From the NCBI RefSeq assembly GCF_003018235.1, contig NZ_CP027437.1: 64,000 nt of DNA; one strand, given 5' to 3'. Shown here one piece after another: positions 12,201-18,200 of the stretch. A program made the position numbers. This DNA comes from Escherichia coli. Lineage in GTDB: Bacteria; Pseudomonadota; Gammaproteobacteria; Enterobacterales; Enterobacteriaceae. Numbering within the stretch: the first letter of the stretch is position 1; each line of letters begins with the position of its first letter.

Positions 12201-15200
12201 ATTTTCTGCAGAGCAATTTTTTATAGTTGCGCTCGGTATACACAACAATCAGCGCATAGTTGGCTGATAAAGAAAAACTCCGTAAAGAAGGTGTCACTAT
12301 GAATGATTCACTCAAGGCGCAATGCGTTGCCGAGTTTTTAGGCACCGGACTGTTCCTCTTTTTTGGCATTGGTTGTTTGTGCGCCCTGAAAGTTGCCGGG
12401 GCAAGTCTGGGACTGTGGGAAATTTGTATCATTTGGGGGTTAGGGATTTCGCTTGCTGTTTACCTTACGGCAGGTATTTCCGGCGCTCATCTCAACCCGG
12501 CAGTTACCATTGCTCTGTGGCTGTTTGCCTCTTTCCCAGCCCGTAAAGTGCTGCCATTTTGTGTGGCGCAATTAGCGGGTGCTTTTGGTGGTGCGATTCT
12601 GGCATATTCTCTCTACAGCAGTTTATTTACCGATTTTGAATCTGCTCACAATATGGTGCGTGGTAGCGCAGAAAGTTTACAACTCGCCAGTATCTTCAGT
12701 ACTTATCCGGCAGCGGCGATTAATGTATGGCAAGCTGCGTTGGTCGAAGTGGTCATAACGTCCATGTTAATGGGGTTGATTATGGCGTTGACCGATGACG
12801 GTAATGGCGTACCCAAAGGACCACTTGCGCCTTTACTTATTGGTATTCTGGTTGCTGTTATTGGTGCTTCTACCGGACCATTAACCGGTTTTGCCATGAA
12901 TCCAGCGCGTGATTTTGGACCTAAGATTTTCACCTGGCTTGCGGGGTGGGGAGAAATTGCGATGACTGGTGGACGCAATATTCCTTATTTCATTGTACCC
13001 ATTATTGCACCGATCATTGGGGCATGTGTTGGTGCGGCGATTTATCGCTATCTCATTGCAAAGAATTTACCTGTCAATAGTGTAGCGCCTAAAGAAATTA
13101 GCGAATAACGAAATAATCTGGCAGTTATAAACGTTTATTTTTTTACTGTTTGTGATCTGCTTTCCGAACTTATTAAAAAGTCTCCCGCTTCATGGAGGCT
13201 TTTGTTATTGTCCTTTGTGCTTCTCGTCAGTAAATCATCAGGGATGATGTGAAGATTAAATGTAAAACAATTGTTTTGCTATAACAATAAATTAACTGGG
13301 AGGTTTTATCATGATTTCTGCGGCGACACTTAATTCAGAACTCATTAATAAAATCGCGCAGGATTTTGCGCAGGCGACCAGCCTTGCGGTTGTCGTGGTC
13401 AATATTCACGGCGATGAAATTTCCGAGCTGTTTAACTTCACTCCATTTTGTCAGATGATGCGGCAACACCCTCAGCTAAGCACTCGATGTCGCATGAGCG
13501 ATCGTTGTGGGGGCCTGGAAGCCTCTAAATCCGATCAGCCTTGTATTTATCGCTGTCATGCCGGATTAACCGATTTCTCTATTCCACTGGTAATCGCCGG
13601 GCATTTAGTTGGTTTTGTATTGTGCGGGCAAGTTCGTCTGCGTAATGATGATGTCGATTTGGTCGATATTCTGAATGTCGATGATTGCTGGCAGGCAGAT
13701 CCCGAATTACTTAATGAATTTCGCAAAGTCCCTGAGATGGATTACTCAAGAGTTATGGCCTCTGCTGATTTGTTGAAGTTGATTGTGGAAAATTGCCTCA
13801 AAAAACAACTCAATTTTGTGGTTATTAAAGAGAACAAATTTCAGTCAGATTCGGTGCGCCAGACTCGTGCGCCTAATCCCCACGACAATAAAATGAAAAA
13901 AGCTTTACGCTATATTGATGCGCATTTATCAGACGATTTGCGTCTGGAAGATGTCGCCTCGCACGTTTATCTAAGCCCTTATTATTTCAGCAAGTTATTT
14001 AAGAAATACCATGGGATTGGGTTTAATGCGTGGGTAAACCAACAACGGATGGCCAGCGCTCGTGAGTTACTGTGCCATAGTGACTGGAGCATCGCCAGCA
14101 TTGCGCGTAATTTAGGTTTTTCGCAAACCAGTTATTTTTGCAAAGTTTTCCGTCAGACTTATCAGGTTACGCCGCAGGTGTATCGGCAGCAAGTGAATGA
14201 AAATGCGGCGATGGAAACGGTATAGAGTAAATGCCCCAAAAAAAGAGGACGGTTTAAATAAACTCTGCAATGAATAATTAACGTTATTTACCTGTTATGG
14301 GAAAAGTGAAATCAGCTCATAACATACGCTGACAGGTGTGGCACATTTGTGCCTGGGAAGAGGGTGAAAATCCCTCGCAGCCCCCGCTGCTGTAATGCTG
14401 ACAAACCCGAAAATGCCACTGATCGCGAGATTGGGAAGGTCGGGAGAGGATGACGCTAAGCCAGAAGACCAGCCAGTCAGTCAATACCAACAACTTCGGT
14501 GGGAAGTGGGTTGCCCGGAAGCGTCCGGTAGAGTACCGGCGCGTCTTTATACCCCTACCACCCTGAAAGGATCAGGGTATGGCGGCATCATTTAGTTCTT
14601 TCATCGCAGTGCCGACAGGCACCAGGGCTGCACTTAAGGTGTGGCAATCTTGTTTCATGGCTCATCAACCAGACCGCCATTACAGGAAACTAAGTGGAGG
14701 GCGAGAGGCATGAAAACGATAAAACCCGAATCGATAGCTCTTTTTTGCCTCTTATCTGGAGATGTGGATCTGGCGAAACATCTGGCTGAAATATTGCCAA
14801 TAAGCTGTTTTGTTGGTGAGGACTGGCAGCAAGATTTCCAGCCTCTTGACGGTGGGCCTGTGCAATCGTTATCAGATGCGTATAGCGATTATTCAGTGCT
14901 GCTATTGATAGCAGCTGAAAGCGAGATATCCGTACCAGAATGGCTCGCTCATTCTGAAGGAACGACGGTAATTGTGATTGCAGAACACAATGCCCGTTTG
15001 CTGACTGGTCCGGCTGGTGGGGCTGTAGCATTGATCCATTATCTGAATGAAATCTGTCATTCCAGAGAAACCGCTGTCAATGACGCATTTTGTCGGACGT
15101 TAACACGAGGAAGTCTGGCTATTCCGCAATGCCATCTTCTTTCGTAATGGATTGAGAATGCTGGATTTTTAATTATATTACGCGCAGTATTAATCGCGTA

Positions 15201-18200
15201 AATGTTTTGCGGTCAGCAACGGTGGGGGATCCATTGTTCTGTTCAATGAATACCATCATACAATTGAATCAGGAGTCGGTATGATGATTTTGGTGACAGG
15301 TGGAGCACGGAGCGGGAAGAGTCGCCACGCAGAGGCGCTTATTGGGGACTCTTCACAGGTTCTGTATATCGCCACCTCGCAAATCCTTGATGATGAGATG
15401 GCTGCACGGATAGAACATCATCGGAAAGGCCGCCCGGCGCACTGGCGCACGGTGGAGCGCTGGCAACATCTTGATGAATTAATTCATGCAGACATTAACC
15501 CGCATGAAGCTGTGTTGCTGGAATGCGTTACCACAATGGTGACTAATCTGTTGTTTGATTATGGCGGAGATAAAGACCCTGATGAATGGGATTATCAGGC
15601 GATGGAACAGGCGATTAATGCTGAGATTCAGTTGTTGATTGCTGCCTGCCAACGTTGCCCCGCGAAGATTGTATTAGTGACTAACGAAGTGGGAATGGGG
15701 ATTGTGCCGGAGAGTCGTTTGGCACGACATTTTCGTGATATTGCCGGGCGGGTAAATCAGCAGCTGGCCGCTGCGGCAAATGAAGTGTGGCTGGTGGTTT
15801 CGGGTATTGGAGTAAAAATCAAATGAGTAAATTATTTTGGGCGATGCTCTCTTTTATTACGCGTCTGCCTGTGCCGCGTCGCTGGTCCCAGGGACTGGAT
15901 TTCGAGCATTATTCTCGCGGTATTATTACTTTTCCTTTAATTGGATTATTGCTTGGCGCGATTAGCGGGCTGGTCTTCATGGTGCTGCAGGCATGGTGTG
16001 GCGTACCACTGGCGGCACTGTTTAGCGTACTTGTGCTGGCGCTGATGACCGGGGGATTCCACCTGGACGGCCTCGCCGATACTTGTGATGGCGTATTTTC
16101 TGCACGTAGCCGCGATCGCATGTTGGAAATCATGCGTGATAGCCGTTTAGGTACCCACGGCGGTCTGGCATTGATTTTTGTTGTACTGGCAAAGATTTTG
16201 GTGTTAAGCGAGTTGGCTTTGCGTGGCGAACCGATCCTTGCATCGCTGGCGGCAGCATGCGCGGTCAGCCGCGGGACTGCCGCATTATTGATGTATCGTC
16301 ATCGTTATGCCCGGGAAGAAGGGCTTGGCAATGTGTTCATTGGCAAAATTGATGGGCGACAAACCTGCGTCACACTCGGTTTAGCCGCTATTTTTGCTGC
16401 TGTATTATTGCCAGGTATGCATGGTGTGGCTGCTATGGTGGTGACGATGGTGGCGATTTTCATCCTCGGTCAGCTTCTCAAACGTACGCTGGGCGGGCAA
16501 ACCGGCGATACGCTGGGAGCAGCCATAGAGCTTGGTGAACTGGTCTTCCTGCTGGCACTGCTATAAAGAGACGTGACATGCAAACACTTGCCGATTTACT
16601 GAATACGATCCCTGCCATCGATCCTGCCGCTATGTCGCGTGCACAACGGCATATCGACGGGTTACTCAAACCTGTTGGTAGCCTGGGAAGGCTGGAGGCG
16701 CTTGCCATACAACTGGCGGGAATGCCGGGGTTGAATGGCATACCGCATGTGGGCAAAAAAGCGGTACTGGTTATGTGTGCCGATCACGGCGTCTGGGAGG
16801 AAGGGGTCGCTATTTCCCCAAAAGAAGTGACAGCCATTCAGGCTGAAAATATGACCCGCGGAACAACCGGCGTGTGTGTGCTGGCAGCACAAGCGGGCGC
16901 TAACGTCCACGTAATTGATGTTGGTATTGATACTGCTGAGCCTATCCCCGGGCTTATCAACATGCGTGTCGCACGAGGTAGCGGCAATATTGCTTCAGCT
17001 CCGGCAATGAGTCGCCGTCAGGCTGAAAAGTTGCTTTTGGACGTCATATGTTATACGCGGGAGCTGGCAAAAAACGGTGTCACGCTGTTTGGTGTAGGTG
17101 AACTGGGGATGGCAAACACGACACCGGCAGCGGCAATAGTCAGCACAATCACTGGCCGGGATCCTGAAGAAGTGGTTGGGATTGGCGCAAACCTGCCGAC
17201 AGATAAACTGGTTAATAAAATTGATGTTGTGCGACGGGCGATTATGTTGAATCAACCAAATCCGCAGGATGGCGTTGATGTCCTTGCAAAAGTGGGTGGA
17301 TTTGATTTGGTCGGAATGGCTGGCGTGATGTTAGGCGCTGCGTCCTGCGGTTTACCGGTGTTGCTGGATGGATTTCTTTCTTATGCTGCTGCGCTCGCAG
17401 CCTGCCAGATGTCTCCTGCAATCAAACCGTATCTCATTCCTTCTCACCTGTCGGCAGAAAAAGGGGCGCGTATAGCGCTGTCGCATTTGGGGCTGGAGCC
17501 TTTTCTCAATATGGATATGCGTTTAGGTGAGGGGAGTGGCGCAGCTCTGGCGATGCCCATCATCGAAGCTGCTTGTGCGATATACAACAACATGGGCGAA
17601 CTTGCTGCCAGTAATATTGTTCTACCGGGGAATACGACTTCTGATTTGAACAGTTAAAAACGAAAAGTCTGATAAAAGCTATACTTAACCGATAGCTTTC
17701 GCGACTTAGGAAAGGGACATGATGCGTCGTGTAAATATTCTTTGCTCATTTGCTCTGCTTTTTGCCAGCCATACTAGCCTGGCGGTAACTTATCCATTAC
17801 CTCCAGAGGGTAGCCGTTTAGTGGGGCAGTCGTTTACTGTAACTGTTCCTGATCACAATACCCAGCCGCTGGAGACTTTTGCCGCACAATACGGGCAAGG
17901 GTTAAGTAACATGCTTGAAGCGAACCCGGGCGCTGATGTTTTTTTGCCGAAGTCAGGTTCGCAACTCACCATTCCGCAGCAACTGATTTTGCCCGCCACT
18001 GTTCGTAAAGGGATTGTGGTTAACGTCGCTGAGATGCGTCTTTATTACTACCCACCAGACAGTAATACTGTGGAAGTCTTTCCTATTGGTATCGGCCAGG
18101 CTGGGCGAGAAACCCCGCGTAACTGGGTGACTACCGTTGAACGTAAACAAGAAGCACCAACCTGGACGCCAACGCCGAACACCCGGCGCGAATATGCGAA

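Follow-up and report, generated by a model that had tools for sequence, protein, structure and literature searches.

Deletion remnants of the cbi operon and a conserved cobalamin riboswitch between pocR and cobU in Escherichia coli

The interval between pocR and cobU of Escherichia coli is analysed here in a stretch of 64,000 nucleotides (nt) from contig NZ_CP027437.1 (assembly GCF_003018235.1), referred to as the window, where it carries a cobalamin (B12) riboswitch and the stubs of three cbi genes. The genes of the window include, in order: (i) pduCBA, with pduC broken by an insertion sequence (IS), (ii) pduF and pocR, (iii) the interval, (iv) cobU, cobS and cobT (cobUST), and (v) ldtA, tRNA-Asn and the cbl/nac region. 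From pocR onward the remnants read pocR, an adenosylcobalamin (AdoCbl) riboswitch with a ribosome-binding site (RBS) hairpin, cbiA' (44 codons), cbiG' (145 codons), cbiP' (140 nt) and cobUST, all given below as window positions on the + strand. The AraC-family regulator of pdu and cob, pocR (13311-14225), scores 553.7 bits against NCBIfam NF047788 (cutoff 500), and its ratio of nonsynonymous to synonymous divergence (dN/dS) is 0.03-0.04 across Escherichia. From its end at 14225 to the start of cobU at 15281 there are 1,055 bases, in agreement with a first-pass annotation of the window that placed a gap of about 1 kb at 14226-15280. The same annotation described the cbi operon as missing from this site, and this holds: the interval has no intact cbi gene, and all 17 cbi genes are absent from the window or reduced to three stubs (cbiA, cbiG and cbiP). 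Its size of ~17 kb for the cbiA-cbiP block is too large, as the missing block measures ~14 kb in Citrobacter; ~17 kb would fit the entire Salmonella operon with cobUST counted in. Comparison was made with the pocR loci of 80 species and with L084, a complete Citrobacter operon that runs from pocR through cbiA-cbiP and cobUST to ldt. The flanks and leader of the window are syntenic with this Citrobacter operon, while the full Salmonella-type gene order (pocR, leader, cbiA...cbiP, cobUST, ldtA-proximal) is not present.

The leader, described in the first-pass annotation as B12 riboswitch-like, returns a full-length match to RF00174 in the Rfam cmscan proposed there as a check, at a score far beyond chance. 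The aptamer (14317-14491; 109.4 bits, E = 1.7e-26) spans the whole model (positions 1-189 of 189) and exceeds the gathering score of 31.5 bits; the same element scores 106.9-115.4 bits where it precedes an intact cob operon, as in Salmonella diarizonae, Citrobacter, Klebsiella pneumoniae and Yersinia. Across Escherichia species the aptamer is 93-95% identical. It lies on the sense strand, 88 nt upstream of the kept cbiA start codon and with cobUST downstream. The expression platform that follows (14492-14578) has 81-85% nt identity to the cob leaders of Salmonella and Citrobacter, and this level of identity extends over ~14313 to 14587 and includes the cbiA ATG. Within the platform a hairpin, ACCCTGA-AAGGA-TCAGGGT (14560-14578), is predicted in both the minimum free energy and the centroid fold and would sequester the RBS. 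By sequence, the window RNA is a bona fide RF00174 member and the ortholog of the Salmonella/Citrobacter cob leader.

Upstream of the aptamer, the spacer from the pocR stop codon (14226-14316) is 91 nt long and appears to be missing the cob promoter region. Escherichia spacers span 83-92 nt, that of E. fergusonii 120 nt and that of 'Enterobacteriaceae bacterium RIT691' 48 nt, compared to 287-325 nt in the genera with intact operons; similarity to the spacers of these genera is not above shuffled controls. A consensus scan of the + strand of 14226-14316 finds no sigma-70-like promoter or terminator. The Salmonella cob promoter presumably lies in the ~230 nt of upstream intergenic sequence that are gone from the window.

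The first of the stubs, cbiA' (14579-14713), comprises the original cbiA start and 43 further codons. In alignment, its ATG coincides with the start codon of cbiA in Salmonella (L021:11510) and Citrobacter, and its TGA (14711-14713) overlaps the cbiG' ATG at 14710 to form an ATGA overlap. The DNA-level match to cbiA is limited to the first three codons, and a comparison of the encoded peptide MAASFSSFIAVPTGT to MAANFHAFVLAGTGS over 15 residues is insignificant (E = 4.8). The reading frame is open and of the same length in 11 of 11 Escherichia lineages, and its substitutions are spread without bias over the three codon positions (34/32/35). A consensus scan identifies a weak terminator-like hairpin and T-rich run inside cbiA' (14627-14655) as a candidate feature. 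This stem, GCUGC...GC(G/A)GC, is followed by AATC and a T run (T5-T8 in several lineages) and occurs in most Escherichia lineages, with energies of -2.5 to -9.6 kcal/mol. If real, the hairpin could act as a translation-sensitive attenuator; it is not relied on as evidence here, given its weak energy and its position in the least conserved part of cbiA'.

The second stub, cbiG' (14710-15147), includes a CbiG N-terminal domain and a non-conserved tail. The first-pass annotation had listed an open reading frame (ORF) of 168 residues and of unknown family at this position. Such an ORF exists mechanically (GTG 14641 to 15147), but its family is known: it contains the N-terminal ~119 residues of CbiG. 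The real ORF is almost certainly the 145-codon version from ATG 14710, which is the coding sequence called by RefSeq (WP_000849050.1), and not the 168-residue version. The profile of CbiG, a cobalt-precorrin-5A hydrolase (NF004463), is matched over positions 1-125 of 351 with E = 2.8e-19, and the score of 69.5 bits is below the cutoff of 546 for full-length CbiG. By BLASTX, cbiG' is 43.7% identical to residues 1-119 of Citrobacter CbiG (E = 9e-20), and the tail (residues 120-145) has no convincing alignment to CbiG. A Pfam scan of cbiG' finds zero domains, a PDB sequence search finds nothing relevant, a word-indexed protein search returns Escherichia and Shigella stubs only, and an exhaustive representative protein search gives 31 matches that are mostly fragments. 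As these other protein searches are uninformative, the identity of cbiG' rests on NCBIfam, BLASTX to the Citrobacter operon and a fold match. An AlphaFold2 model based on a 19-sequence alignment (pLDDT 74, pTM 0.68) predicts an alpha/beta domain at residues 9-134. Among the PDB matches listed for this model, the CbiG homolog 3eeq_B has the top TM-score (TMq 0.54, E = 0.048), and the matches with better E-values are generic Rossmann-like folds.

The motifs of CbiG are poorly kept in the stub. In the 19-sequence alignment VRVLAPL, DPAVVVIDE, SGHxGGAN and PVITTATD are deleted or altered, and differently in each lineage. In the window, for example, Pro takes the place of the His of GH(A/V/M)GGAN (GPAGGAV), and E. 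fergusonii has SSSGKAT at this motif. Some E. coli alleles have an in-frame loss of two residues of GPAGGA and stop nine codons early. Compared to the CbiG enzyme (Pfam CbiG_N, CbiG_mid and CbiG_C; PDB 3EEQ), cbiG' shares homology in the N-domain (~119 residues), while the middle and C-terminal domains are missing, the motifs are degraded and the cell has no pathway to supply the substrate. Judged on its sequence, the cbiG' product is homologous to CbiG yet does not qualify as a CbiG enzyme. The annotation of E. coli LF82 names the ORF CbiG (LF82_328), and RNA sequencing of this strain gives 16.7 and 13.0 reads per kilobase per million (RPKM) for cbiG' and 7.3 and 10.8 for pocR (PMC4509574), so that the two are transcribed to a similar extent.

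The third stub, cbiP' (15143-15283), is an untranslated remnant that extends up to the cobU ATG and is detected by local alignment and BLASTX. It aligns to the last 146 nt of Citrobacter cbiP (L084:15382-15527) with a score of 57, compared to 19.4 +/- 3.0 for shuffled sequences, and the BLASTX match to CbiP residues 454-478 is colinear. Within the remnant is a candidate promoter, TTGAGA-16 nt-TATATT (15152-15179), which agrees with the consensus at 10 of 12 positions, is the only + strand promoter-like site found in 14100-15400 and is kept in every E. coli deletion variant. The cobUST genes that follow are intact, as the first-pass annotation had stated: cobU (15281-15826; NF004469, 244 bits), cobS (15823-16566; TIGR00317) and cobT (16578-17657; NF000996) all score above their NCBIfam cutoffs. 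These genes of nucleotide-loop assembly and cobinamide salvage have dN/dS values of 0.02-0.17.

Comparison with the cob loci of Salmonella and Citrobacter brackets the endpoints of the missing DNA. Deletion 1 took out ~5.9 kb that began early in cbiA and ended shortly before the start of cbiG, with its junction within 14588-14705; as DNA alignment of this segment to cbiA or to the 3' end of cbiF is not above shuffled controls, the junction is given as a bracket. Deletion 2 removed ~7.5 kb from cbiG codon ~120-140 to cbiP codon ~454, with its junction within 15067-15143. Both main deletions are thus mapped to within ~80-120 nt. A third deletion, of ~230 nt of the pocR-cob intergenic region upstream of the aptamer, is probable from the spacer lengths. 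The cbi genes were lost, on this comparison, by at least two old deletions in situ. The stubs of three cbi genes are in their original order at a syntenic site, where cobT is followed by ldt as in Citrobacter, and therefore of the two histories offered by the first-pass annotation, loss or non-acquisition, it is loss that stands.

The riboswitch has continued to evolve slowly since these deletions. Substitution rates were estimated by parsimony over six Escherichia lineages and scaled to the 4-fold degenerate sites in pocR and cobUST, where 0.83 changes per site were counted. The aptamer (0.20) and the expression platform (0.22) are the slowest segments, compared to 0.34 for the cbiP' remnant upstream of cobU (0.32-0.36 for the block of the promoter-like site), 0.47 for cbiG' residues 1-119, 0.51 for the pocR-aptamer spacer, 0.55 for cbiA' and 0.77 for the cbiG' tail. 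In nine lineages without cbi genes, 97.5% of the pair cells of the aptamer are paired. Compensatory change occurs in seven aptamer pairs, compared to 2.1 +/- 0.9 in shuffled controls (0 of 500 reach seven) and 0-1 in slid controls, with the caveat that the aptamer structure is predicted from the same sequences. Full Rfam scores are retained despite a pocR dS of 0.35-0.57. Two E. fergusonii alleles have an identical 175-nt aptamer and one difference in the 88-nt platform; this amounts to 1 difference in 263 leader positions, compared to 55 in 826 positions of the stubs and downstream spacer (p = 3e-6), and the flanks differ by 6-9%. By these sequence measures, the aptamer and platform are under strong purifying selection that lasted long after the operon was gutted, even where no cob gene follows.

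Selection on the stubs is weaker. Both stub ORFs are open and of constant length in 11 of 11 Escherichia lineages, with one in-frame 3-nt indel in their 569 nt compared to at least five indel events in a 133-nt stretch of the untranslated cbiP' remnant. In a neutral, substitution-only simulation on the observed tree, the probability that all copies stay open is <1/5000 for cbiG' and 0.05 for cbiA'. Since six lineages had been found via the protein of the ORF itself, the tests were repeated on four independently found lineages, for which the values are 0.006 and 0.20. The whole 145-codon cbiG' ORF has a pairwise dN/dS of 0.43-0.64, and its tail has no codon-position bias (24/33/26). Two E. fergusonii cbiG' alleles look neutral, with differences of 9/7/10 by codon position and dN/dS of 0.53. 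These alleles, the degraded motifs and the alleles with an early stop indicate that cbiG' is under weak constraint at most.

The whole layout of pocR, riboswitch, stubs and cobU is found in 641 of 5,426 complete E. coli genomes (12%), and DNA resembling cbiA-cbiD occurs in 0 of the 5,426; no intact cbi operon was found in E. coli. Secondary truncations in E. coli include IS5 at 14976 (K-12), ISEc8 at 15021 (O157:H7) and a pduV' joined at 14804 or 15094; all truncated variants retain at least ~186 nt upstream of cobU. Beyond E. coli, the full layout is present in E. whittamii, two further GTDB Escherichia species, E. marmotae and E. albertii. E. fergusonii carries pocR, the riboswitch, cbiA' and cbiG', and its pocR is only ~80% nt identical to that of E. 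coli. The E. fergusonii locus (L096/L097) is likewise ~80% identical and seems more divergent than expected for the species pair. RIT691 (L059) carries pocR, the riboswitch and stubs, with the cbiA ATG fused in frame to cbiG'. The gene that follows the stubs is ldtA in E. fergusonii and cbl/nac in RIT691.

Escherichia sp. MOD1-EC7003 (L038) was considered as an Escherichia with an intact operon and rejected, as it shares 95% identity with Klebsiella spallanzanii (L035) along 18.9 kb. The contig probably reflects mislabelling, contamination or a wholesale transfer and is not an Escherichia-type locus. A metagenome-assembled genome of Citrobacter sp. (HRGM_Genome_0066, L004) has a pocR 98% identical to that of E. 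coli in an E. coli-type layout without cbi genes, and another contig of the same genome (L022) has a normal Citrobacter operon. A 383-nt contig of Streptomyces cahuitamycinicus (L065) also has a pocR 98% identical to that of E. coli. Contamination or mis-binning likely explains L004 and L065.

The reading that we favour, at a probability of roughly 55%, is that the window holds a degenerate form of the Escherichia pocR-cob operon whose leader works as that of Salmonella cob, with B12 trimming the propanediol-inducible expression of cobUST. A translational mechanism of the Salmonella cob leader is reportedly established by the work of Richter-Dahlfors, Ravnum and Andersson (1994-2001). By analogy, binding of AdoCbl would allow the hairpin to hide the cbiA RBS and prevent translation from ATG 14579. 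Translation of cbiA' would be coupled to that of cbiG' via the ATGA overlap, and without translation the transcripts from the pocR/pduF promoters would be more prone to termination or decay, with less read-through into cobUST. B12 would in this way trim the propanediol-inducible part of cobUST expression. The promoter-like site in the cbiP' remnant (15152-15179) probably gives a basal expression of cobUST that is independent of the riboswitch. The short spacer, with neither a predicted promoter nor a terminator, suggests that the switch is co-transcribed with pocR. Riboswitch control of cobUST, raised as a possibility in the first-pass annotation, is plausible.

A number of findings weigh against this reading. 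In the great majority of complete E. coli genomes (88%), cobUST is kept and pocR, the riboswitch and the 5' part of cbiG' are missing, and control of cobUST by the switch is therefore dispensable; in addition, a separate promoter-like site lies between the switch and cobU. Conversely, E. fergusonii and RIT691 have kept the switch and stubs with no cobUST at this site, and E. albertii has the switch and stubs, yet its cobU is a pseudogene and cobT is absent. The cbiG' region is G-rich, not C-rich, and the GC skew over 14680-15280 is positive, which thus provides no support for a Rho-loading site. Finally, a purely translated spacer predicts no codon-position bias, whereas cbiG' residues 1-119 have substitutions of 62/46/105 by codon position (p = 2e-6; p = 0.01 in the unbiased subset). 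The occurrence of cobUST without the switch and of the switch without cobUST, the composition of cbiG' and the constraint on it keep alive two other readings, in which the regulated output is a CbiG N-domain protein or the pocR/pdu system.

In E. albertii (L086-L088, 6436-7876), cobU is decayed, with a 148-nt gap and many stops, and cobS is intact. Compared to E. coli, this cobS has a dS of 1.2 and dN/dS of 0.02; the dS is far above that of neighbour genes and suggests a different history of cobS.

The first of the two other readings, considered rather unlikely, is that the riboswitch and cbiG' are an exapted module, in which the regulated product would be a small CbiG N-domain protein with a new corrinoid-related role that is independent of cobUST. 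This would explain an ORF that is open in every lineage, where the neutral simulation rejects chance, as well as the codon-position bias in residues 1-119, the dN/dS below 1 and the transcription of the ORF in LF82. The proteins of E. coli and E. fergusonii are 47-51% identical, though their cbiA' spacers look unrelated side by side. The persistence of the module without cobUST in E. fergusonii and RIT691, with the in-frame fusion of the cbiA ATG to cbiG' in the latter, is also expected, and the modelled product would be a folded alpha/beta domain similar to the CbiG N-domain. By contrast, a protein with a role to serve is hard to reconcile with CbiG motifs that are lost or degraded differently in each lineage, a weak constraint (0.47 of the 4-fold rate), the neutral look of the two E. 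fergusonii alleles, E. coli alleles that lack two GPAGGA residues and stop early, and the absence of any Pfam match; most E. coli have moreover deleted the 5' part of the ORF.

An unlikely alternative is that the switch serves pocR and pdu as a 3' extension of the pocR mRNA, and so ties the level of PocR and the B12-dependent Pdu expression to B12 in bacteria that are unable to make it. B12 riboswitches are reported to control pocR or eut regulators via RNA-level mechanisms in Listeria and Enterococcus. In agreement with such a role, the pocR spacer is only 48-120 nt in all lineages without cbi genes and has no predicted promoter or terminator, the switch is conserved where cobUST is gone, and in the lineages examined it is always beside pocR and pdu genes; the E. 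coli variants observed without pocR/pdu are also without the switch. This co-occurrence may, however, be mere adjacency, the sequence offers no evident mechanism, and the conserved RBS hairpin and open frames point instead to a translational output downstream.

It is very unlikely that the interval is a functionless fossil that has simply not decayed yet. In favour of this view, the loss of the cbi genes has taken away what the switch originally controlled, the whole segment is missing from most E. coli with no obvious harm, and the stubs evolve fast. A fossil leader would not be expected to evolve 4-5 times slower than 4-fold sites and the cbiG' tail, to keep full Rfam scores with compensatory changes or to be conserved in E. 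fergusonii, and the open ORFs are incompatible with the neutral simulation; the rate and covariation data thus disfavour this reading. That Escherichia never acquired the cbi genes, for which the gene absence alone speaks, is refuted by the cbiA, cbiG and cbiP remnants, which lie in order behind the cob leader and before cobU, in the chromosomal position of the Citrobacter operon.

A broader proposal, put forward tentatively, is that the riboswitch, the cbiA start and the CbiG N-domain stub have been kept as a B12-sensing cassette beyond species-level divergence, even without cobUST, and that the output under selection would no longer be B12 biosynthesis, but either a small domesticated CbiG-derived protein or the tuning of the neighbouring pocR/pdu system by B12.

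The locus can be set beside three known systems. Like the cob leader of Salmonella and Citrobacter, the leader of the window lies directly downstream of pocR and shares the 81-85% identity, the RBS hairpin, the start codon and the range of Rfam scores. The Salmonella/Citrobacter leader precedes the 17 genes cbiA-cbiP, whereas that of the window precedes a 44-codon stub coupled to a truncated cbiG and lacks the ~230 nt of upstream intergenic sequence. The cobUST locus of E. coli K-12 carries cobU, cobS, cobT and ldtA at the corresponding site and is 95% nt identical to the window wherever both have sequence. It differs in the IS5 at window position 14976 and in the absence of pdu, of pocR and of the riboswitch together with the 5' two-thirds of cbiG'. 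From this alignment the window is an older and more complete state than K-12. The leader of E. coli btuB belongs to the same RNA family and follows the same logic, in which B12 represses translation initiation, with secondary effects on the downstream transcript that accompany its translational mechanism. It differs in locus and target, and the btuB coding sequence is intact, whereas the first frames of the window are gene stubs. Corrin synthesis was reportedly lost in the E. coli lineage, with cobinamide salvage only remaining, according to Lawrence and Roth (1995/1996).

The locus itself is already known as an ordinary form of the Escherichia cob operon, and RefSeq already annotates a 'cobalamin riboswitch' and a hypothetical or 'cobalamin biosynthesis protein' there. 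No paper that describes the riboswitch-stub arrangement in E. coli was found in the searchable literature, the sole mention being the 'CbiG' table entry of LF82. The mapping of the deletion endpoints, the genus-wide age of the layout and the continued selection on the orphan riboswitch and stub ORFs are apparently also absent from that literature. The locus represents the textbook case of an E. coli that has lost de novo B12 synthesis and kept cobinamide salvage, and the window is its least-eroded state. E. coli strains that carry pdu, including the adherent-invasive LF82, hold a second, strongly conserved cobalamin riboswitch in addition to that of btuB. If this switch tunes cobUST, a CbiG-derived protein or pocR/pdu, the availability of B12 in the gut would be linked to propanediol metabolism in pdu strains. 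The locus also provides a clean natural example for the question of why a riboswitch survives the deletion of its operon.

Two further cob loci of the comparison set are eroded in other ways. Hafnia paralvei ATCC 29927 (L051, 10900-17500) has an independent cob truncation, with the riboswitch, a fusion ORF that ends in CbiF 164-257 and a full-length cbiG, which is again the gene left beside the cob leader. After cbiG, large helicase- or ATPase-like genes lie on the opposite strand and are possibly a defence island. In Enterobacter sp. EA-1 (L063, 11347-20813), cbiA-cbiL match only in many short, frame-shifted pieces, which points either to a cob cluster pseudogenised over its whole length or to a poor assembly.

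Elsewhere in the window, pduC is split by an IS3-family element (7575-10675) into pieces at 10412-10675 and 7575-9062, with the transposase ORFs on the - strand at 9907-10437 and 9080-9802. The pdu operon of the window strain is therefore probably inactive, though pocR, the riboswitch and cobUST are intact. A match to the small RNA STnc230 (Rfam, 71.1 bits) lies between pduF and pocR on the - strand (13167-13250), and this RNA is found at the same place in the loci of E. fergusonii, E. marmotae, E. albertii, E. whittamii, Salmonella and Klebsiella. STnc100 is also matched in the window. Rfam matches typical of lambdoid or P2-like prophages and of hok/sok regions, namely C4 antisense RNA, isrK, DicF and sok, occur at 43294-43746, 51058-51233 and 56765-56971. 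Several tRNA matches with an identical score of 72.6 bits surround nac/cbl, and their equivalents are annotated as tRNA-Asn in VCSW7.

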